Shown piece by piece: positions 8,549 through 27,315 of a DNA stretch of 32,000 bases (the first letter of the stretch is position 1; each line of letters opens with the position of its first letter). Under the pieces are notes generated by a model. That model worked only from the letters and a program-made list of their open reading frames with translations. It was not told the origin of the DNA and did no database searches. Origin of the DNA: Bellilinea caldifistulae (GTDB taxonomy: Bacteria > Chloroflexota > Anaerolineae > Anaerolineales > Anaerolineaceae); NCBI RefSeq assembly GCF_001306055.1, contig NZ_LGHJ01000014.1, forward strand, positions 60,001-92,000. Direction: 5' to 3'. The position numbers and the translations under genes are program-made.

Positions 8549-8668
<120 letters not shown>

Positions 8669-8686
8669 CACTTCTTAATGAGATAG

Positions 8687-8725
8687 AAAGTTGCCCCTTG
8701 AGGCCAGAAGGGGCAACTTTATTTT
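8687..8725 (+). terminator. Riboswitch expression-platform intrinsic terminator
   Basis: Perfect 13-bp stem AAAGTTGCCCCTT (8687-8699) / AAGGGGCAACTTT (8708-8720) with an 8-nt loop, followed by ATTTT. The metK RBS (AGGAGG) and ATG follow. Confidence 0.85.
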
Positions 8726-8745
8726 ACAGGAGGATCAAAAACAGA

Positions 8746-9978
8746 ATGAACACCACTTTTATGAACTCGCCGCGTTACTTGTTCACCTCTGAATCGGTAA
8801 CCGAGGGCCACCCGGATAAGTTGTGTGATCAGGTCAGTGATGCGGTACTGGATGCCTGTCTTGAGCAGGATCCTTATTCGCGTGTGGCTTGTGAAGCGGC
8901 AACCAAAACCGGCTTTGTGCTGGTCTTTGGCGAAATCACCACCCGCGCACAAATCAATTTTGATGAACTGGTGCGCCGCGTCGTCAATGAAATTGGTTAT
9001 GATAGCAGCGAAAAAGGCTTCGACGGTACTACCTGTGCCGTGCAGGTGGCCATTTCCAAACAGTCCGGTGATATTGCCATGGGCGTGGACAAAGCATTGG
9101 AAGCCAAGACCGGCTCGATGAGCGAACGAGAAATTGAAGCCGTCGGCGCCGGCGATCAGGGGATGATGTTTGGGTATGCCTGCAATGAAACCCCCACCCT
9201 GATGCCCATGCCCATCTATCTGGCTCACAAACTGACCCGCCGGTTGGCGGAAGTGCGCAAAAACGGCACATTGCCCTGGCTGCGCCCGGACGGCAAATCT
9301 CAGGTTACAATCGAATATCGCTTCGGCAGGCCTCACCGGGTAGATACCGTCCTGATCAGCACCCAGCACGCGCCGGAGATCTCTCAGGAGGAAATCTATC
9401 AGGCGATTACCCGGCACGTCATTTATCCGGTGCTTCCGCCGGAAATGGTGGATGATCAGTTGAAGATTTATGTCAACCCCACCGGACGCTTTGTCATCGG
9501 CGGGCCGATGGGAGATTCCGGTCTGACCGGCCGCAAAATTATCGTGGATACCTACGGCGGGATGGGCCGGCACGGCGGCGGTGCCTTTTCCGGTAAAGAC
9601 CCGACCAAAGTCGACCGTTCGGCAGCCTACGCTGCCCGCTGGGTGGCCAAGAACATTGTTGCTGCCGGTCTGGCAGAACGGGTGGAAATTCAGGTGGCGT
9701 ATGCGATTGGGGTTGCCCGCCCCTTAAGCATTAATGTGGAAACCTTTGGCACCGGCACCATTCCAGATGAGGAAATTGCCCAATTGATTAATGAACATTT
9801 TGACCTGCGGCCCGGTGCCATTTTGCGCGATCTCGATCTGCGCCGTCCGATCTACCGTCAACTGGCGGCCTACGGCCATTTTGGCAGGGATGATTTAGAC
9901 CTGACCTGGGAACGCACCAACAAAGCCGAAGCATTGAAGCAGGCTGTGGCTGCCAAACTGGCAACCGCAGCGGATTAA
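8746..9978 (+). CDS. metK: S-adenosylmethionine synthase
   Basis: The sequence from [32 protein letters not shown] onwards is canonical MetK ([33 protein letters not shown]). The start is moved to ATG 8746, in frame with the track ORF at codon 40, with AGGAGG 9 nt upstream. The track start at 8629 lies inside the riboswitch. Confidence 0.95.
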
Positions 9979-16871: not shown

Positions 16872-17822
16872 TTATGGGGTTGGGGAAGGGGTGGGGGTCA
16901 ATGTTAGGGTGCCGGCGGGGGTTGGGCTGGCGGTCAGTGTGCCGGTGGGGGTCAATTCCAGTGTACCGGCAGGGGTTGGGCTGGCGGTCAGAGCGCCAGT
17001 GGAAGTCATCTGCGGAGTTTCTTCAACCGCCAGGGGCGCAAGTGGTGTTTCTTCCAGCAGGGGTGGCAGCAGAATCAGGTTTTCAGCCGCCTGCAAATCA
17101 CTGGCTGCCATCACTGGCCGGTCGGGCAAGTTGACCAACGCAGAGTCAAGCCTGCCAATCCAGGCAGCCAGTTCTGCTTTTTGCTCCTCGCTGGCCGTTT
17201 GCTGCAATTCAACCAGCAAAAGCCGGGCTGCGCGGATTTCATCACGCGCCAGCCCCAAATTGGCCTGACTGAGGTATACCCGTGCCCGCTGAATCAACAG
17301 GGCGGATTTTAAGACGGTCAGCTGGTATTCCACCTCGTTGAGAAAATCTCCATTTGCAAGGGTCTGTTGATTTTCCTGCGCCAGTTGAAGCGCTTCGGTG
17401 CTGATTTTCCGTACCTCAGCCAGTTTCTTCTCCAGATCGTCCAATCGTTTGAGCTGCAGGGGGTAAGCCTGCTGGGTGGATTGAATCAGTTCAACATCGC
17501 TTTTCAAACCGGCTGATTCATCCTGAAGCAGGATGATCTGGTTACCCATGTCGGTAACCTGCTGCTGGAGTCTCTCCAACCGCTGGCTGAACTGCTCGTT
17601 TTGGCTGGCCTGTTGGGTCTCCAGCAAACTCAGGCGGGCGCTATTCTCCCGTGCCGGCAGGATGGCTTGCTGATAAATCAGGACGAAACCCATGTACAGC
17701 AGCCCGGCCAGGATGACACCTGCCAAAACCACTATGATCAAGCGCAGGACAGCGCGGAAAAACGCCCCTACTGCAATCGAAAATCGCTCACCAGCGGAAA
17801 GCGGGGGTTGTGAGTTACTCAT
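16872..17822 (-). CDS. Bitopic membrane coiled-coil protein with a Thr/Pro-rich repeat tail
   Basis: The start is moved to ATG 17822 (MSNSQPP...), which has AGGAG 6 nt upstream and removes the overlap with the upstream gene. One TM (FFRAVLRLIIVVLAGVILAGLLYMGFVLIY) is followed by a long coiled coil and a C-terminal tail, GALTASPTPAGTLELTPT GTLTASPTPAGTLTLTPT PSPTP. Confidence 0.7.
   Translation of the reverse strand: MSNSQPPLSAGERFSIAVGAFFRAVLRLIIVVLAGVILAGLLYMGFVLIYQQAILPARENSARLSLLETQQASQNEQFSQRLERLQQQVTDMGNQIILLQDESAGLKSDVELIQSTQQAYPLQLKRLDDLEKKLAEVRKISTEALQLAQENQQTLANGDFLNEVEYQLTVLKSALLIQRARVYLSQANLGLARDEIRAARLLLVELQQTASEEQKAELAAWIGRLDSALVNLPDRPVMAASDLQAAENLILLPPLLEETPLAPLAVEETPQMTSTGALTASPTPAGTLELTPTGTLTASPTPAGTLTLTPTPSPTP
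16890..16997 (-). repeat. Two tandem, in-frame 54-bp repeats encoding an 18-aa Thr/Pro-rich unit
   Basis: 16890-16943 and 16944-16997 are near-identical, with a handful of mismatches. They translate to GTLTASPTPAGTLTLTPT and GALTASPTPAGTLELTPT at the C-terminus of the 16872..17822 product. Confidence 0.85.
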
Positions 17823-17835
17823 GGCAATCTCCTGT

Positions 17836-18750
17836 CTAGGGGGTTTCACCCACGCTCAACAAACGGCGTAAGCCGTCCAAAAAGTTTTGAAAAACATTGC
17901 TGCGTTTTTGCAAATCCTCGATCTGGGTTTGGAAAGCGGCGGTTTGTTGCTGCAAGTCAGCCAGTTCACTCTGGGCTGATTTCAATTCATCGCTGAGTGA
18001 CTTTTGGCCTTGCTCCAGCGTGGTCACCCGTCCGCCGAGGGCTTCAATCGTCTGTACCCGGCTGCGTAAATTATCCACATCTCCCTCTAATAAACGGATG
18101 CGGTTATTCAGTGCATCCAGTCTTCCTGAGAGCGCCTGTGCCTCTGCGGCGGGCGCATAGGTGAGGGTTTGATTGATCAGTGCCAGGGTACCCAGGGTGA
18201 AGACCAACGAGAGGATCAGGGTCACGATGGCCACACCGACGGCTGTCCAGAGCAAATCTTCACGTCGTACCCATTTCTCGTCGGTTTTGAGAGGCTGGCC
18301 GACGGGCGGCGGGGTAGAAGCAGTCCGGGATTCAAGCGCCGCAGCCGGTTCAGCAGCAGGCGGGGTGGCCTGTGTGGCTTCTTGTATTTCACCCTCGGCC
18401 TCAGATTGGGCGGGTTCGCTTTCCACTTCGGGCGGTTCTGCTGCAGGGCTTTCCGACAGGGTTGACTCAACCTCCTCTCGCGCCGGAGCGGAAGCCACAG
18501 CCGCCACAGGCTCCGGGAGGGTTGATTCGGGCTCTTCCACTGCGGTGTCGGTAAAATCAATTTTCAGGTAGGGCCGGATCTTTTCCAGCGAAGCTGGCCC
18601 AATTCCGCTCACCCGTGTCAATTCATCCAGCGTGGAAAAGGGTCGGGCCGCCACAATCCGCTCGGCGAGGGCCGGGCCAATCCCCGGTACCGAGGCCAGT
18701 TCTTCCAGTGTGGCACGATTGACCTCAACTGCGCCATTTTGCGTTTCCAT
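17836..18750 (-). CDS. Membrane protein with N-terminal ComEA-type helix-hairpin-helix DNA-binding domain, acidic linker, one TM and C-terminal coiled coil
   Basis: 304 aa with a GGAGGA RBS. Residues ~8-63 (VEVNRATLEELASVPGIGPALAERIVAARPFSTLDELTRVSGIGPASLEKIRPYL) match the ComEA HhH (HHH_3) motif. An acidic Pro/Ala/Glu linker follows. KWVRRED precedes the TM LLWTAVGVAIVTLILSLVFTLGTLALI. A heptad-rich tail ends the protein. Confidence 0.75.
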   Translation of the reverse strand: METQNGAVEVNRATLEELASVPGIGPALAERIVAARPFSTLDELTRVSGIGPASLEKIRPYLKIDFTDTAVEEPESTLPEPVAAVASAPAREEVESTLSESPAAEPPEVESEPAQSEAEGEIQEATQATPPAAEPAAALESRTASTPPPVGQPLKTDEKWVRREDLLWTAVGVAIVTLILSLVFTLGTLALINQTLTYAPAAEAQALSGRLDALNNRIRLLEGDVDNLRSRVQTIEALGGRVTTLEQGQKSLSDELKSAQSELADLQQQTAAFQTQIEDLQKRSNVFQNFLDGLRRLLSVGETP

Positions 18751-20536: not shown

Positions 20537-22045
20537 ATGAACGGAAAAGTGCTTGTTTTCAGCGTTCATGAACCATTCCGAACCCTGTTGCTGAACAGCT
20601 TGAAGGGCGGCGGTTTCAGCCGGGTGGCTGCCGCCGGCAAAGTTGAGGAAGTCCGTCAGATTCTGCCGGAGGGGGATTTTGAGGCGCTGGTGGTGGACCT
20701 GGATGCCGGTGAGGACATTCAACAGGCCTGGTTGCATCTGGTGCAGGAAGTGCAGCCCTCTCGTTTGATCATCTTCCCGCCGGATAACGACCGGCTTCAT
20801 CCGTTGGTGGGGCTCCTTCGTCCGGCAACTGTGCTGATCAAGCCGTTTTACCTGCCGGATTTGCTTTCTGCTTTACAGGTAAACGAGGGTCATTCCCCGA
20901 CCGTTCGGCCGGCTCCCCCGCTCTCATCACCTGCTACCGAACCGAAAGAGACCCTCGCCAAGTGGTTGAGTGAAGCCCATGCGCTTGGCGCGGTCATTCT
21001 GCGGCGGGGTCAGCCGCCGCTGCTGGTTGGCAACCTTGAAGAGGAAGATTTACGCGAAGCCGGTCTGGTTTTGGGGCGGTTCTGGCAGAGCGAAAGGCGA
21101 ACGGATTTAATTCGCTATTTTCGCCCGCATGTTGCCGATCAAGATGTTTTGCTTTACGCCACCTTGCTTTCGGAAGGCACACCATTGGGGTTGTTGTTCG
21201 AGGCGCATACTTCCCTGCGGGAAGCGCGCCGTGTAAGTCAGTGGTTTGCCAGCCGTTGGAATGACCGGCTGCTCGCCGAACCCGTCAACGACCTGCCAGG
21301 AACCGCAGAATTGGTTTCTCCGTTCACAGTTGAAGAGGAGAATTCTCAGTCAGCAGAACAATCATTCTTATCGGAGGAAGATGGGAATCTCGCAGAATTT
21401 GATCAGATTCGATTGGAGGATCTACTTGGCAGTGTTCCCTCGCCTGACCCGGTAAGGTACGAAAAGTCCTCTGACTGGCAGCCTGAAAGTGACTTCCTGC
21501 CCGGAAGTGACGTTATGGCACCTGTGAGAGAACCTGTTCAGCCCTCAAATCCCCAACCCGATCCAACGCTACCACCATTTGCTGAAAGCCCGGCCGCACT
21601 GGAAGAAACTCGCCCAAGCCGGAAAACCACGTTACCTCCAAGGGGGGACTTGCTGAATCACGAAGCGCGCCAAACTTACACCTGTGTTTTGCTGCCTCGT
21701 TCCCCTGAGGTAACTTTAGAAGGGGAAATCGGGGAGGAACTGCGCCGTTGGCTGCCGGATTTTTGTGCTACACTGGGGTACACACTGGAATCGCTGATCG
21801 TCGAGACGGCTTATCTACTGTGGACGGTCAACCTGCCCCCGGCAGTATCACCCGGACATGTGGTGCGGATTGTACGGGATCAAAGTTCCAGCCATCTTGC
21901 CGGGTGTATCCCCGAACTGGCGGGTAAGGGAAATTTCTGGGCTTCAGCCCACCTGATCCTGCGCAGCCGGCATGCACCGGAAGCCTCATTGATCGAGGAC
22001 TTTATCAGCCGTACCCGCCGCCGGCAGGGATTTCTTTCCTCATAA
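20537..22045 (+). CDS. Multidomain protein: pseudo-receiver (REC-like), Roadblock/LC7-like region, acidic/Pro-rich linker and a degenerate IS200/IS605-type Y1 transposase fold
   Basis: 502 aa.
- Residues ~4-115 are CheY-like (LVVDLD, VLIKPFYLPDLLSAL), but the N-terminal acidic pair is replaced (VFSVHEP).
- Residues ~140-240 resemble Roadblock/LC7 (ALGAVILRRGQPPLLVG ... VLLYATLLSEGTPLGLLFEA); this is weaker.
- Residues ~380-497 align along their length with IS200 TnpA (YxxV..P, LPPxxS, SS, FW). HUH is replaced by YLL, and the catalytic Tyr by Phe (IEDFISRT). Confidence 0.7.
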   Translation: MNGKVLVFSVHEPFRTLLLNSLKGGGFSRVAAAGKVEEVRQILPEGDFEALVVDLDAGEDIQQAWLHLVQEVQPSRLIIFPPDNDRLHPLVGLLRPATVLIKPFYLPDLLSALQVNEGHSPTVRPAPPLSSPATEPKETLAKWLSEAHALGAVILRRGQPPLLVGNLEEEDLREAGLVLGRFWQSERRTDLIRYFRPHVADQDVLLYATLLSEGTPLGLLFEAHTSLREARRVSQWFASRWNDRLLAEPVNDLPGTAELVSPFTVEEENSQSAEQSFLSEEDGNLAEFDQIRLEDLLGSVPSPDPVRYEKSSDWQPESDFLPGSDVMAPVREPVQPSNPQPDPTLPPFAESPAALEETRPSRKTTLPPRGDLLNHEARQTYTCVLLPRSPEVTLEGEIGEELRRWLPDFCATLGYTLESLIVETAYLLWTVNLPPAVSPGHVVRIVRDQSSSHLAGCIPELAGKGNFWASAHLILRSRHAPEASLIEDFISRTRRRQGFLSS

Positions 22046-22087
22046 AGGAAAGCGTTTGAGTGCAAATCATTTTTCAGGTGAGAATCA

Positions 22088-24868
22088 ATGCCGCCAATTC
22101 TTTATTTGATTGATGGACATGCATTAGCCTACCGAACCTATTTTGCCATCACCCTTTCCGGTCAACAACTGACTACCAGCAGCGGCGAACCAACCGCCGG
22201 TATTTACGGTTTTGCCAGTGTTTTACTGCGATTGCTGGAGCAGGAAAACCCCGAATACCTTGCGGTTGCTTTCGACACAGGGGTGACGTTTCGTAACGAC
22301 CTGTACCCGGAATACAAAGCCACCCGTGCCAAAATGCCCGATGAATTACGCCCGCAAATTGATCGCATTCGCGAGATGGTGGATATTTTTGGCTTTCCCC
22401 GTCTGGAAGCCGAAGGCTTTGAGGCAGATGATGTGCTGGGCAGCATTGCCCGAAAGGCGGCAGAAAACGGACTGGCCGTCAAGATCATCACCGGTGATCG
22501 AGATTTGCTGCAACTGGTGAATGACCGGGTGATTGTCAATCTGGCCGGCAGTAAACTTTCGGAAGCGCGGGATTTCGGCGTGAGAGAAGTGATCGAAACC
22601 CTTGGGATCCGACCCGAACAGGTGGTGGATTACAAGGCATTGGTGGGAGATAAATCGGATAATATCCCCGGCGTGGCCGGTATTGGCGAAAAAACGGCGA
22701 TCATGTTGTTGCAGCAGTACTCCAATCTGGATGACATTTACGCTCATCTGGATCAGATTCCTGCAAGGGTGCGAAACCTGCTCGAAAAAGATCGCGAAAA
22801 AGCCTATTTAAGCCGTCAACTGGCTACAATACGCACGGATTTACCGGTAATGCTCTCCCTTGAACAGGCGCGTACTTCCCAAATCCAACTTTCGGCGGTG
22901 GAGGAGTTTTTCCAAAAACTGGAATTTCGTTCGTTGTTGCCACGCCTGAAGAAACTGGAAAATCGGGGGGAAGCCGTCCCAACCGCAGGGCAGCAGCTGT
23001 CGCTGTTCGGTGAACCGCTGGTGAAAATTGGCGAACCGCCGCCTCAAGATGGGAGATGGGTTACCATCCAGACCCGCGGAGCACTGGCAGATCTGATCCG
23101 TAAACTGGAAGGGGTGAAATATCTTTCGTTAGACACCGAAACCACCTCCACCGATCCAATGCGGGCGGAGCTGGTGGGAATTTCGCTGGCTTTCGAGGGC
23201 GGTGAAGGTTATTACCTGCCGGTTGGTCATCGGACGGGCGAAGAGCAATTACCTGCCGATGAAGTGCTGGAGGCGTTGCGCCCGGTTTTGAATTCGCCGC
23301 AGGTGGCAAAAATCGGTCACAACCTCAAATATGATGCACTGGTACTGGAAAATCAGGGTATCCCCGTCGCACCGCTGATTTTCGATACGATGATCGCGGC
23401 CTGGCTGGTGCAACCGGAAAATTACAATCTGGGATTGAAAGAACTGGCGCAGTCCTATCTGGGTGTGCAAATGACCCACATTGAAGAACTGATCGGGAAG
23501 GGTAAAAATCAACGAACCATGGATCGGGTGCCGATTGCCACGGCAGCGCCATACGCGGCGGCGGATGCAGAAATCTGTATACGACTGATGCCCCTGCTGC
23601 GCGAACGGTTGGAACAGGTGAACGCCGTCCGTTTATTTGAAGAAATTGAAATGCCACTGGTGCCAGTGCTGGGAATGATGGAACGGAATGGGGTCATGCT
23701 GGATGTACCCTTCCTTAAGAAAATGTCGCAGGAATTGAACAGCCGGCTGGCGGAAATCGAAAGGGACATTTTCGAGGTTGTGGGGTATTCTTTCAACCTC
23801 AATTCCACCCAGCAGTTGTCAAAAGTCCTGTTTGATACCCTCAAACTGGAACCGCCGGATCGGCGCAAAAAGACCGCATCGGGACATTTTTCAACCTCGG
23901 CGGGTGTGCTGGAGGAGTTGCGCAATCAGCACCCGATTGTCGAGAAAATTCTGGAATACCGCGAACTGGCAAAACTCAAATCCACTTATGTGGATGCCCT
24001 TCCGCAGCAAATCAACCCCCGGACGGGGCGCGTGCATACCTCGTATAACCAGACCGGTTCAGTGACCGGCCGATTGGCATCCTCCGATCCGAATTTGCAA
24101 AACATTCCAACCCGAACGGAAACCGGCCGGCTGGTGCGGAATGCCTTCATTGCTGCACCGGGTTACAGGTTGCTTTCAGTGGACTATTCCCAAATTGAGT
24201 TAAGAATTGTCGCTCACATGGCTCAGGATGAAGCCATGCTGGCAGCTTTCCGCGCCGGACAGGACATTCATGCGGCTACCGCGGCGGCTATTTATGGAGT
24301 AGGTCTGGATCAGGTCACCAAAGAGCAGCGCCGCCACGCCAAGGCGATTAACTTTGGCTTGATTTACGGCATGAGTGCTTTTGGGCTGCATCGTTCCACT
24401 GACCTGACGCTGGCAGAGGCCGAGAATTTTGTTAAGGCGTACTTCCAGCAATTCCCCGGTGTAAAAGCCTTTCTGGACGGCTTGCGCCGTCAGGCGTCCC
24501 GGCAGGGATATGTAGAAACGCTGTTGGGGCGAAGGCGATACTTTCCCAATTTGAAGAGCAATGCCAACCCAGCCCTGCGCGCCCGCGAGGAACGCGAAGC
24601 CATCAATGCACCGGTGCAGGGTACCGCTGCCGATATCATGAAACTGGCAATGGTGCGTCTGCCACCGGCTTTGAAAGCGGCGGGTTTGGGAGCGCGTATG
24701 TTGCTTCAAGTGCATGATGAACTGGTGCTGGAAGTGCCAGAGAACGAACGGGACGAAACCGTGCGGGTGGTACGCGAAGTGATGGAAAATGCCTATCCAC
24801 TTTCTATTCCGCTGGTGACCGAGGCCCGCTGGGGACAAAACTGGGGTTCGCTGGAGGTGTTATCCTGA
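22088..24868 (+). CDS. polA: DNA polymerase I (5'-3' exonuclease, 3'-5' exonuclease and polymerase domains)
   Basis: 926 aa. It has the 5' nuclease N-terminus (LYLIDGHALAYRTYFA), Exo I LSLDTETTS and Exo III YAAADAE, so proofreading motifs are retained. Polymerase motifs are present: A (LLSVDYSQIELRIVAHM), B (RRHAKAINFGLIYGMS) and C (LQVHDELVLE). Confidence 0.95.
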   Translation: MPPILYLIDGHALAYRTYFAITLSGQQLTTSSGEPTAGIYGFASVLLRLLEQENPEYLAVAFDTGVTFRNDLYPEYKATRAKMPDELRPQIDRIREMVDIFGFPRLEAEGFEADDVLGSIARKAAENGLAVKIITGDRDLLQLVNDRVIVNLAGSKLSEARDFGVREVIETLGIRPEQVVDYKALVGDKSDNIPGVAGIGEKTAIMLLQQYSNLDDIYAHLDQIPARVRNLLEKDREKAYLSRQLATIRTDLPVMLSLEQARTSQIQLSAVEEFFQKLEFRSLLPRLKKLENRGEAVPTAGQQLSLFGEPLVKIGEPPPQDGRWVTIQTRGALADLIRKLEGVKYLSLDTETTSTDPMRAELVGISLAFEGGEGYYLPVGHRTGEEQLPADEVLEALRPVLNSPQVAKIGHNLKYDALVLENQGIPVAPLIFDTMIAAWLVQPENYNLGLKELAQSYLGVQMTHIEELIGKGKNQRTMDRVPIATAAPYAAADAEICIRLMPLLRERLEQVNAVRLFEEIEMPLVPVLGMMERNGVMLDVPFLKKMSQELNSRLAEIERDIFEVVGYSFNLNSTQQLSKVLFDTLKLEPPDRRKKTASGHFSTSAGVLEELRNQHPIVEKILEYRELAKLKSTYVDALPQQINPRTGRVHTSYNQTGSVTGRLASSDPNLQNIPTRTETGRLVRNAFIAAPGYRLLSVDYSQIELRIVAHMAQDEAMLAAFRAGQDIHAATAAAIYGVGLDQVTKEQRRHAKAINFGLIYGMSAFGLHRSTDLTLAEAENFVKAYFQQFPGVKAFLDGLRRQASRQGYVETLLGRRRYFPNLKSNANPALRAREEREAINAPVQGTAADIMKLAMVRLPPALKAAGLGARMLLQVHDELVLEVPENERDETVRVVREVMENAYPLSIPLVTEARWGQNWGSLEVLS

Positions 24869-24984: not shown

Positions 24985-27315
24985 ATGGCTGGCGACCAGA
25001 GATTATTTGAGGAAGCCATGAATAAGGGGCATTCGGCGGCCTGGGATCAGGAATGGGAGCAGGCAGCCCGATATTATCGAGCGGCTTTGGAGGAATTTCC
25101 GGATCATCCGGCTGCGCTGAGTAATTTGGGCCTGGCGTTGTTTGAGTTACAGGATTTCGAGGAAGCCCTGCAGGTATATAAGCGGGTTGCGCTGATCAAC
25201 CCCGATGATCCAATTCCTGCCGAGAAAATGGCACGGATTTACGAGCGGCAGGGCAGGTTGAATGATGCCATACGCGCCGGGATGCAGGCTGCCGAACTTC
25301 ACCTCAAAGCCAGAGATGTGGAAAAATCCATCGAGGGCTGGCAGCGGGTTCTCAGCCTTAACCCCGAAATTTTCACAGCCCACTCACGGCTGGCTTTGAT
25401 TTATGAGCGATTGGGCAAAAAGAGCGAGGCTGTTTCGGAATTGATTGCCTGTGCCAGCCTGATGCAACATGCGGGGGATCTGCAGAAAGCCCAACAAATT
25501 GTACTTTACGCCCTCAAATTGATTCCCGGCAGCGCTGAAGCAACCCAGGCGTTGCAGATGCTCAAAATTGGTCAGCCAATGCCCAAGCCGCTCCGTCCGC
25601 GTGGCGGGACGGGGCCGATGCGCATGGCGGAGGTCAAACTGCTCGAAGCTCCGCAGGAAACCGATCGGCAGCTTTCCCTCGACCCGATTTCCGAAACCCG
25701 CCAGCGGGCTTTGATTCAACTGGCGGAATTGCTGTTTGATACGCCGGAGGATTTTTCCGGCACGGATGCCCCTTCTCCGCGGCGCGGGATTAACGCATTG
25801 ATGCGCGGGACGGGTGAACTGGTTCTCGATCCATCCACCCGCACCCGCGTTTTGCTGCACATCGGGCAGGCAATTGAGTCGCAAACGATGGGGCAGGAAA
25901 AACAGGCAGCGGAAGAACTGGAACGCGCCTATGATTTGGGCTTTTCGCATCCAGCCCTCTATTTTGATTTGGGGTTACTGCTGGCAGATAAAGAGGATCA
26001 AAAAGCCCTGCCCATTCTTCTCAAGGCCGTTAAACACCCCGAATTTTCGCTGGCTTCGTACTTGCTTATAGCCAAAATTTACTACCGTGCCGGCAATTAT
26101 AAAGAGGCTGCCACGGCCTATCTTCAGGCATTGCGTCTGGCAGATACGGAAACGGTTGCGTTGGAACAAAGAGAAGAACTCCGCCAGATTTATGAGCCGA
26201 TCATCGAGGCGCAGGCGCAGAGGAATGATCCTCAATTGTTTAAGACGCTGTGCGATACGATCGCCGATCAACTGCTGCGCGGGGACTGGCGTCAATTTTT
26301 GGCGAAGGCTCGGGAACAATTACCACCCCCGCCGCCGAATTCACCCCCGCCGCCGTTGGCAAGTCTGCTACTCGAATCGCGTAGTTCAGAAGTGATAGAA
26401 GCCATCGGTCGAATTCGGGATTACATGCGGCAGGGTAAATACCGTACTGCCATGGAAGAGGCTCACTACGCCATAGACTTTGCGCCGACCTATTTGCCGC
26501 TGCATGTTCAAATTGCCGAATTGTTGGTTGCCATCGGTCAGATTCAGGAAGCCATTACCAAATATCTGCTGGTGATGGATCTCTATAATCTGCGCGGCGA
26601 AGCCAGTCAGGCCATTCAAATCATGGAGCGGGTCATTCAACTTTCACCAGCCGATTTCAATTTCCGGAAAAAATTGATTCGGATGCTTGTTGAGCAGGGG
26701 CGGGTAGATGATGCACTCAAGCAGTACATGGCAATGGCCGATTTTTATTATCAAATGGCCGATTTGGAAGCCGCTCGTCAAATCTACATGGAAGCCTTGA
26801 AACTTTCCCAGCAATCCCGCCGCAGCCGGCAATGGGCTTATGAATTGCTGGGCTATCTGGCGGAGATTGACATGCAGCGCCTGGAACCGCGTCAGGCATT
26901 GCGCTTTTACGAACAAATGCGTTCTCTCCAGCCGAATGATCCCAACCCGCGGATTCGGATTGTGGTGTTGAATTTCCAACTGGGGCAGGATAAGACCGCC
27001 TACCTTGAAATGGATAACTTCATCGGCGTTCTGGAAGGTTTGCGCCAGGATGATGCGGCCATCCAATTTGTCAAAAGCATTCTGCTGGAATTGCCGGAAA
27101 GATACGAATTGCGCCACAAACTGGCTGATTTATATAAACGGACTCACCGCCTTGCAGAGGCGATTGCCGAATTGGATACCCTGGCGGAGCATTATGCGGA
27201 AGTGGGTGATTACGCATCTTCCATACGCACTGTGCAGGAGATCATCGCTCTTAACCCGCCCAACCGCCGCGAGTATGAGGTTGTGCTGGATAAACTGCGA
27301 AAAGGCGGAAATTGA
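24985..27315 (+). CDS. Large tetratricopeptide-repeat (TPR) protein
   Basis: 776 aa with repeated 34-aa TPR-like units throughout (for example AARYYRAALEEFPDHPAALSNLGLALFELQDFEEALQVYKRVALINPDD) and a poly-Pro hinge (LPPPPPNSPPPPLA). No catalytic motif was recognised. Confidence 0.8.
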   Translation: MAGDQRLFEEAMNKGHSAAWDQEWEQAARYYRAALEEFPDHPAALSNLGLALFELQDFEEALQVYKRVALINPDDPIPAEKMARIYERQGRLNDAIRAGMQAAELHLKARDVEKSIEGWQRVLSLNPEIFTAHSRLALIYERLGKKSEAVSELIACASLMQHAGDLQKAQQIVLYALKLIPGSAEATQALQMLKIGQPMPKPLRPRGGTGPMRMAEVKLLEAPQETDRQLSLDPISETRQRALIQLAELLFDTPEDFSGTDAPSPRRGINALMRGTGELVLDPSTRTRVLLHIGQAIESQTMGQEKQAAEELERAYDLGFSHPALYFDLGLLLADKEDQKALPILLKAVKHPEFSLASYLLIAKIYYRAGNYKEAATAYLQALRLADTETVALEQREELRQIYEPIIEAQAQRNDPQLFKTLCDTIADQLLRGDWRQFLAKAREQLPPPPPNSPPPPLASLLLESRSSEVIEAIGRIRDYMRQGKYRTAMEEAHYAIDFAPTYLPLHVQIAELLVAIGQIQEAITKYLLVMDLYNLRGEASQAIQIMERVIQLSPADFNFRKKLIRMLVEQGRVDDALKQYMAMADFYYQMADLEAARQIYMEALKLSQQSRRSRQWAYELLGYLAEIDMQRLEPRQALRFYEQMRSLQPNDPNPRIRIVVLNFQLGQDKTAYLEMDNFIGVLEGLRQDDAAIQFVKSILLELPERYELRHKLADLYKRTHRLAEAIAELDTLAEHYAEVGDYASSIRTVQEIIALNPPNRREYEVVLDKLRKGGN

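Follow-up and report, generated by a model that had tools for sequence, protein, structure and literature searches.

In this study, we analyzed gene X, an open reading frame (ORF) encoding 502 aa (20537..22045, + strand) that lies directly upstream of polA in a 32,000-nt stretch of the genome of Bellilinea caldifistulae, hereafter the window. X joins an atypical response-regulator module to a domesticated transposase domain: a pseudo-receiver and a Roadblock-like domain are followed by an acidic linker and by a C-terminal Y1 domain of the IS200/IS605 type that has lost its catalytic residues. Comparison of the family at the sequence level showed that X, a host gene with a captured TnpA domain, is inherited vertically and in single copy in the Anaerolineales, and we consider the domestication of this Y1 domain to be highly probable. 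Gene order across the family showed that X, polA and a gene for a TPR-repeat protein form a conserved three-gene cluster. The results point to a non-catalytic and hitherto undescribed host role for a former transposase.

The C-terminal domain of X

Searched as a single sequence, the X protein of the window stayed under the curated thresholds, with 18.4-22.5 bits against Pfam Y1_Tnp (PF01797; gathering score 23, E=2.5e-3 to 1.4e-4) and 28-31 bits against the NCBIfam IS200 model (NF033573; cut-off 55). It nevertheless matched the Sulfolobus IS200 transposase 2f4f at E=9e-5, with the H-I-H of the enzyme over Y-L-L and its catalytic Tyr over F489. A family profile of 44 diverse members was compared with PDB and found the solved transposases 2ec2 (4e-15), ISDra2 (2fyx, 8e-15) and IS608 (2a6m, 8e-7), and all 44 members matched Y1_Tnp individually. 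The AlphaFold model of residues 372-502 reached a predicted local distance difference test (pLDDT) score of 95.1 with the order b-a-b-b-a-b-a, and the best 29 Foldseek matches in PDB were all IS200/IS605 TnpA structures, with TM scores of 0.70-0.77 and a root-mean-square deviation of 2.2 A to 2fyx. On the evidence of profiles and predicted structure, the C-terminal domain is unambiguously homologous to IS200/IS605 TnpA, as the preliminary description of this DNA had claimed. The RAYT structure 4er8 was a weaker match (TM 0.57, E=8e-4), and by this ranking the domain descends from the IS200-type class and not from the RAYTs.

Catalytic positions were counted in 176 aligned family sequences. The first His of the HUH motif is Tyr in 141 members, His in 13 and Phe in 12, while the second is Gln in 117, Leu in 24, Met in 10, and Glu and His in nine each. 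At the nucleophile position there is Phe in 114 members and Tyr in 62, and the Gln four residues further on (Y+4), part of the Y---Q signature described for the last helix (PMC6006769), is replaced by Thr in 148. A single member has H-L-H, together with Phe at the nucleophile position, and H-x-H was combined with Tyr in none of the 176. The window protein itself, with Y-L-L, Phe and Thr, is left with neither a metal ligand nor a nucleophile. Judged by these residues, the Y1 domain is certainly dead in the window's own clade, characterized by YLL and Phe, and very likely dead in the rest of the family; since 62 members keep Tyr and 117 have Gln at the second HUH position, the term is safest for the former. 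The inactivation by YLL and Phe that had been proposed from the single sequence therefore stands for the window's clade, whereas the Phe is not universal in the family.

Several non-catalytic landmarks of the fold have been kept, including P387-R388, which corresponds to P-K of TnpA after strand 1, and R447...T/S450-S451, which corresponds to the K-G-x-S-S helix motif. W468, the Trp found throughout the superfamily, is present in 100% of the family within an invariant F-W-A. In addition, the family has a new, near-invariant C-terminal motif, T-R-x-R-Q-G (TRRRQG in the window), in which R494, Q497 and G498 are conserved at 98, 97 and 90%, respectively. The Y1 domain is basic across the family, with a median isoelectric point (pI) of 9.3.

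A host gene of the Anaerolineales

X has 33 close homologs, and a profile search of 1.84 billion cluster representatives (50% identity clusters, E<=1e-30) extended the family to 895 representatives, with most of the best 150 matching over their full length of 460-950 aa. In a survey of 185,579 species genomes, 479 stretches encode a relative; the best 80 of them represent 79 different loci, with a single locus in each assembly. Of the named genomes, essentially all belong to Anaerolineae or Anaerolineales, including the cultured Longilinea arvoryzae. Two contigs from one metagenome-assembled genome (MAG) project, L039 (labeled Bacteroidota) and L046 (labeled Syntrophothermus), carry a typical Anaerolineales X-polA locus with a spacer hairpin, and are probably mis-binned Anaerolineales contigs.

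Conservation within the protein is highest in the dead Y1 domain, at 2.3-3.2 bits per site. Among closer orthologs, the ratio of non-synonymous to synonymous substitution rates (dN/dS) was 0.08-0.13 for Y1, 0.07-0.10 for Roadblock and 0.14-0.26 for the receiver, at dS values of ~0.8-1.8 that are near saturation. The reading frame was intact in every ortholog examined. The window contains no further Y1 copy and no IS200-like end hairpins flanking X, and neither tnpB nor any other transposase gene was found in the window or in six annotated loci; the window genes are otherwise ordinary housekeeping genes. The domestication suggested in the preliminary description is well borne out by this large full-length family with one copy per locus and purifying selection on the dead domain: the Y1 fold was matched, IS-like copies, end hairpins and tnpB were absent, and no ortholog combined H-x-H with Tyr. 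A defense-system or phage gene was considered as well and rejected, as PADLOC returned nothing and PHROGs gave a weak transposase match alone.

The polA-TPR neighborhood

The gene downstream of X encodes a 926-aa DNA polymerase I (Pol I) with 5'-3' exonuclease, 3'-5' exonuclease and polymerase domains (NCBIfam NF004397, 1122 bits against a cut-off of 720). Synteny was assessed in 86 fetched loci, among which the polA position could be evaluated in 79 and the TPR position in 70. In all 79, polA lies downstream of X on the same strand, and the gap determined by tblastn is 23-425 bp in 75 of them, the remaining four having an insert of 0.9-1.5 kb. A TPR gene directly follows polA in 68 of the 70 loci. 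The six annotated loci have the same order of X, polA and a gene for a TPR protein of ~770 aa, with differing outer neighbors; the upstream rhomboid and SppA-like genes are common to the Bellilinea clade only. The linkage to polA, noted earlier for this single locus, is thus conserved within variable flanks, and the position of X and its 42-nt distance from polA had been given exactly. The TPR gene is a third conserved partner that the preliminary description did not mention; its product gave generic TPR matches only, far under the curated cut-offs of named families. At equal evolutionary distance, X proteins share 24-30% identity, compared with ~62% for polA and ~46% for the TPR protein.

Two genomes carry a 203-aa stand-alone dead-Y1 paralog right after the TPR gene (L066:16440-17051 and L025:11503-12114, both + strand). 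Its HUH position reads D-Y-I/F-Q-W and its C-terminus NDYI..TRQQQG. It scores 62.6 bits against the NCBIfam IS200 cut-off of 55, so that it would be automatically annotated as an active transposase. This paralog is a second, independent association of the dead-Y1 module with the cluster. It is followed by a 283-aa ORF that looks Mrr-like by eye from its sequence and is listed here as a candidate.

Further observations were made on the cluster in single genomes. In L004:1-7878, X is immediately preceded by genes of phage type (terminase, portal, capsid), so that a prophage borders the cluster there and leaves the order X-polA-TPR undisrupted. In L007/L012:5778-8554, polA was called as two ORFs of 618 and 307 aa, probably because of a frameshift or a faulty assembly of that MAG. 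Coordinates of X, its domains and the neighboring cluster members in the window are given in Table 1.

Table 1. Features of gene X and of the X-polA-TPR cluster in the window.
Feature	Position	Strand	Evidence
Whole gene X: pseudo-receiver, Roadblock, acidic linker and inactivated Y1 domain	20537..22045	+	ORF with intact frame
Pseudo-receiver (receiver-like), residues 1-120	20537..20896	+	Family profile, Pfam Response_reg
Roadblock/LC7-like (MglB-like) domain, residues 134-245	20936..21271	+	Profile, AlphaFold, Foldseek
Acidic Pro-rich linker, residues 246-377	21272..21667	+	Charge, Pro content, low conservation
Linker motif 1, residues 291-305, IRLEDLLGSVPSPDP	21407..21451	+	Conservation peak
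Linker motif 2, residues 355-360, LEETRP	21599..21616	+	Conservation peak
Inactivated IS200/IS605-type Y1 (HUH-fold) domain, residues 378-498	21668..22030	+	Profile, AlphaFold, Foldseek
Y426-L427-L428 at the H-u-H metal-binding position	21812..21820	+	Alignment to H-I-H of 2f4f and 2ec2
F489 at the nucleophilic Tyr position, last helix	22001..22003	+	Alignment to Tyr of 2f4f
T493 at the Y+4 Gln position	22013-22015	+	Family alignment
Basic C-terminal motif R494-R-R-Q497-G498, family-specific	22016..22030	+	Column counts
42-nt spacer between X and polA	22046..22087	+	ORF ends; terminator-like site not found
polA, full-length DNA polymerase I	22088..24868	+	NCBIfam NF004397
776-aa cytoplasmic TPR-repeat protein, third cluster member	24985..27315	+	Follows polA; generic TPR matches

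Two features elsewhere in the window were recorded in addition. An S-adenosylmethionine (SAM) riboswitch (RF00162, 85 bits, E=5.5e-19) was found at 8550-8666 (+), at the 5' end of the metK (S-adenosylmethionine synthetase) ORF 8629-9978; it overlaps the listed GTG of metK, whose translation therefore probably begins at a later codon. At 16890-16997, a 54-nt direct repeat in tandem (85% identity) was seen inside a 325-aa ORF (16872-17849, - strand) without any Pfam match, an uncharacterized protein in which it encodes a repeated peptide unit.

The N-terminal modules and the linker

The family profile of the N-terminal domain matched solved receivers in PDB at E=1e-12, and Pfam Response_reg (PF00072) was matched by 29 of 30 members. 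The window receiver alone had no Pfam match and reached just E=0.5 against CheY2. The acceptor D54 (nt 20696-20698) is conserved at 98% in the family and K/R102 at 89%, with K102-P103 in the window protein; the best conserved N-terminal stretch is KPFYLPDLL (K/R102-P103-F104-Y105-x-P107). The position of the acidic pair is occupied by S9-V10 in the window and by T/S-P in the family, never by D-D, and P81-P82 stand at the Thr position. The absence of the Mg2+-binding acidic pair and of the Thr would make the usual phosphorylation of the receiver impossible. These data agree with the pseudo-receiver of the preliminary description, with its Asp and KP kept and its acidic pair lacking, and the motifs quoted there were all found at their sites: VFSVHEP at residues 7-13, LVVDLD at 51-56 and LIKPF at 100-104, as well as ETAYLLW at 423-429 (nt 21803-21823) and IEDFISRT at 486-493 in the Y1 domain. 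No histidine kinase gene is adjacent to X in the window or in the six annotated loci; orphan response regulators exist.

The second module was identified as a Roadblock/LC7-like domain, again in line with the earlier reading. A profile of residues 134-262 matched MglB in PDB at E=1e-4. The AlphaFold model (pLDDT 90.3) has the topology a-b-b-a-b-b-b-a, including a C-terminal helix as in MglB, and Foldseek retrieved MglB, Ragulator/LAMTOR, MP1-p14 and the Streptomyces Roadblock protein 3kye (TM 0.55-0.66, probability 1.0, E ~1e-3). D190, R193, Y207 and R231 are near-invariant. Pfam Robl_LC7 (PF03259) itself was matched by 0 of 28 members at E<=1, and divergent Roadblock members are known to escape this model (PMC4316618).

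The long acidic, Pro-rich linker that had been described is present throughout the family. It has a net charge of -18 in the window protein (residues 246-371) and a median of -23 in the family, contains ~15% Pro, varies in length from 86 to 576 aa and is presumably disordered. The linker is poorly conserved with many gaps, save for two short motifs. Motif 1 has the consensus I-x-L-x-x-L-L-G-x-V-P-x-P-D-P, in which P301, P303 and P305 are conserved at 90, 96 and 89%, respectively; motif 2, L-E-[DE]-T-R-P, forms a local conservation peak with P360 at 89%. One homolog, P0012 (485 aa, on an ENA contig of 5961 bp), has the receiver replaced by an unrelated N-terminus matching PF03109 (ABC1/UbiB-type kinase); it reflects either chimerism of the assembly or another, rare type of fusion.

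Elements in the X-polA spacer

Neither a terminator-like site nor a conserved hairpin was found in the 42-nt spacer of the window, and the spacers of close relatives of this locus are 37-42 nt long and partly conserved. A 7-bp palindrome, CTTTCCT-cataa-AGGAAAG, over the stop codon of X (22034-22052) has no T-run and is unconserved in the closest loci, and was set aside as probably due to chance. Short spacers of 7-50 nt without a hairpin are found in the window's clade and in about half of all loci. The spacers of distant members are 80-400 nt long and strongly structured, with a mean folding z of -3.5 and 34 of 50 below -2.

In 35 of 83 spacers, all from distant loci, there is a hairpin of the form GCGC(A/G)GAG-TATAAT(n)(n)-CTC(T/C)GCG followed by a T-run, which is absent from the window. 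One sequence of this form is GCGCAGAG-TATAATCA-CTCTGCG; example sites are L014:10643-10686, L021:10713-10756 and L084:1659-1702. The sequence GAGTATAAT occurs in 35 defined spacers versus five sites elsewhere in 1.39 Mb, and one of these five, in L034, likewise comes right behind X, on a contig that ends before polA. The stem is paired in 97.5% of cells with compensatory changes in four of nine pairs, a covariation reached by 0 of 500 shuffles, and the many G-U pairs in it point to folding of the sense strand. The hairpin matched no known RNA family in Rfam. A role of the TATAAT loop as a -10 box of polA was unsupported, as no consistent -35 element was seen at 16-18 nt. With its flanking A- and T-tracts, the hairpin looks like an intrinsic terminator and, but for its invariant TATAAT loop, is adequately explained as such.

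A second element, the palindrome GTCATTGCGAG...CTCGCAATGAC, resembles repetitive extragenic palindromic (REP) sequences or miniature inverted-repeat transposable elements (MITEs); it is dispersed in some distant genomes and clustered right after X, with 15 half-sites in 14 kb of spacers versus 26 in the other 1.37 Mb. It often begins 2-5 nt past the stop codon of X, and was seen, for example, at L021:10626-10712, L022:4883-5001, L029:6519, L036:10595, L063:10626 and L073:10614. The palindrome could be a REPtron-like relic or could mark a preferred insertion site. For the hairpin as for the palindrome, the Y1 domain could have left the element behind or could bind it, or the element could simply reflect a spacer that tolerates insertions.

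Proposed role and alternative explanations

We propose that the X protein may be a non-catalytic adaptor, a model to which, as a whole, we assign a probability of roughly 0.4 on the basis of sequence comparison and structural modeling. The dead Y1 domain would be unable to cut structured single-stranded nucleic acid but would still bind it, for instance at hairpins, gaps or fork-like lagging-strand DNA; such binding is inferred from the fold and from the retention of non-catalytic conserved positions, several of them basic, in a domain that is basic in the family. The pseudo-receiver and the Roadblock domain would most likely provide a platform for dimerization or partner switching, and the two linker motifs may be peptides on which the TPR protein or Pol I docks. 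As a net effect, Pol I and the TPR scaffold might be brought to, or held at, particular single-stranded DNA structures, or the presence of such structures might be reported. Pol I completes the lagging strand, and this would tie it to the activity of the ancestral enzyme. That enzyme recognizes hairpins in single-stranded DNA. For active IS608 TnpA, whose target is the template of the lagging strand, binding to fork-like DNA and to the beta clamp has been described (PMC5027513), and binding of Pol I to REP hairpins has been reported (Gilson 1990, as cited in PMC6006769). A more specific version, which we advance only tentatively, is that X is a cleavage-incompetent sensor of structured single-stranded DNA, with a receiver-Roadblock switch and TPR docking, acting with Pol I at lagging-strand gaps or hairpins as a lineage-specific accessory factor of replication or repair. 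If this version is true, X would provide the first example, within the Y1/HUH transposase superfamily, of a conserved member that is catalytically dead and yet has a function in the host.

Several points weigh against this model. Its functional steps are inferred from fold, conservation and gene order, and gene adjacency may be kept for reasons besides physical interaction. With a pI of 7.1, the Y1 domain is neutral in the window protein, and the 32-kb window has no repeat family, REP-like or hairpin, that would serve as a candidate ligand. Roadblock domains usually partner small GTPases, and no MglA-like small GTPase gene was found near X in the window or in the six annotated loci. Furthermore, a terminator-like hairpin stands between X and polA in about 40% of loci, so that co-transcription of the two genes is not universal.

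The hairpin also bears on another reading, in which X is an atypical, phosphorylation-independent response regulator with the dead Y1 domain as its output, binding a structured nucleic-acid site within or close to the X locus and controlling polA and the TPR gene, for example through termination or read-through. Such a regulator would account for the N-terminal receiver joined to a C-terminal nucleic-acid-binding fold, as in response regulators, for the location of X immediately upstream of polA in all loci and for a covarying TATAAT-loop hairpin that is near-exclusive to this position. However, the hairpin is missing from the short spacers of the window's clade and of about half of the loci and is therefore not a universal target, an ordinary intrinsic terminator explains it adequately, no histidine kinase gene was found nearby in the window or the annotated loci, and polA is a housekeeping gene without a known need for a dedicated regulator; on balance we regard this reading as unlikely. 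We hold a similarly low opinion of a pure protein scaffold, in which the Y1 fold would have given up nucleic-acid binding to become a dimerization or interaction module in a signaling complex with the TPR protein, the adjacency of polA being a historical accident of operon structure. IS200-family TnpA is an obligate dimer (PMC3597680), interaction is a classic function of receiver as well as Roadblock domains, and conserved short motifs in a disordered linker next to a TPR gene would fit peptide-TPR docking. Nucleic-acid binding is nevertheless a better fit to the conserved basic and polar Y1 residues (R388, R447, T/S450-S451, R494, R496 and Q497) and to the basic domain of the family, and strict adjacency to polA among proteins just 24-30% identical, within changing outer flanks, is hard to ascribe to chance.

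The two remaining explanations concern the state of the Y1 domain itself. It might still be an enzyme with a non-canonical active site, using Tyr426, or Tyr489 of some members, and Gln as in HUQ-type Rep. Some Rep proteins work with H-u-Q, and the 62 members with Tyr at the nucleophile position and the 117 with Gln at the second HUH position would suit such chemistry. We consider it very improbable, given that 87% of members have Tyr or Phe in place of the first His, that no member joins H-x-H to Tyr, that the Y+4 Gln is Thr in 84% and that the window protein has neither metal ligand nor nucleophile; moreover, the free exchange of Tyr and Phe at the nucleophile position shows that the hydroxyl is not required. 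A decaying IS200 copy or pseudogene, fused by accident to an upstream regulator gene, would explain why the single sequence falls under the Pfam and NCBIfam cut-offs and why the catalytic residues are gone. This explanation is refuted by the intact frames and full-length architecture in hundreds of lineages, by a dN/dS of ~0.1 with conservation peaking in the Y1 part, and by the single copy at a fixed chromosomal position without tnpB, subterminal hairpins or extra copies.

Comparison with known systems

We found no published account of a conserved HUH-less Y1 family, a receiver-Y1 fusion or such a polA-linked gene in the openly readable full-text literature, including the surveys of Y1 proteins and of small GTPases and Roadblock domains, a review on exaptation and the RomR paper. 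Sequences without HuH/Y were removed as presumed non-functional from the main Y1 superfamily survey (PMC6006769), and the existence of a conserved HUH-less family shows that this filter hid real biology. Current database labels are misleading: X proteins are called 'hypothetical' or 'RayT/response regulator', and the short paralog 'IS200/IS605 family transposase'. An N-terminal receiver with an MglB-like Roadblock domain is a recognized architecture (PMC4316618), so the sole novelty lies in the added dead Y1 domain; the view of the preliminary description that the whole architecture was undescribed has to be narrowed accordingly. The pairing of X with polA and the TPR gene across a whole order of abundant, poorly studied filamentous Chloroflexota offers a testable entry point.

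RomR, of the MglA/MglB polarity system, has a receiver followed by a long Pro-rich and Glu-rich region for partner targeting (PMC2034494), and thereby resembles X with its receiver and Pro/Glu-rich linker. The RomR receiver has a phosphorylatable Asp with the signature residues, whereas in X the acidic pair and the Thr are missing. In addition, neither the receiver-Roadblock fusions nor MglB and RomR have a transposase-derived domain or a link to polA, and X has both. Pseudo-receivers such as the FrzS, KaiA and CikA PsR domains keep the receiver fold with incomplete phospho-acceptor chemistry and serve as interaction modules. Compared with these, X keeps the acceptor Asp and K/R-P, loses the Mg2+ ligands and has a dead transposase fold as its output.

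X shares with IS200/IS605 TnpA (IS608, ISDra2 and Sulfolobus IS200; class 1 of Quentin et al., 2018) the fold, the order of secondary structure, the P-K/R and K/R-x-x-S-S motifs and the Trp that has been noted throughout the Y1 superfamily (PMC6006769). In contrast to these enzymes, X lacks the HUH motif, the Y+4 Gln and, in the window's clade, the nucleophilic Tyr, and it is immobile, being single-copy without tnpB or end hairpins. TnpA is a stand-alone enzyme of ~130-155 aa, whereas the Y1 of X is the C-terminal domain of a multidomain protein of 500-850 aa.

The RAYTs (TnpA-REP, REPtron) are, like X, a host-recruited Y1 fold with a single copy and vertical inheritance, and the REP/MITE-like palindromes right after X in some distant lineages add to the likeness. 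RAYTs keep HUH and Tyr and cleave REPs, whereas the X family has not kept this set of residues; moreover, the fusion to receiver and Roadblock domains and the linkage to polA that mark X are both absent in RAYTs. An assignment of X as a RAYT/REPtron is excluded by the absent catalytic residues, the weak fold match to 4er8 and the lack of a REP family in the window. X represents another route of domestication: the known prokaryotic domestications of Y1 transposases, the RAYTs, have kept an active enzyme, whereas in the X family strong selection has preserved the fold while the chemistry was given up, a route known from eukaryotic transposase-derived DNA-binding proteins.

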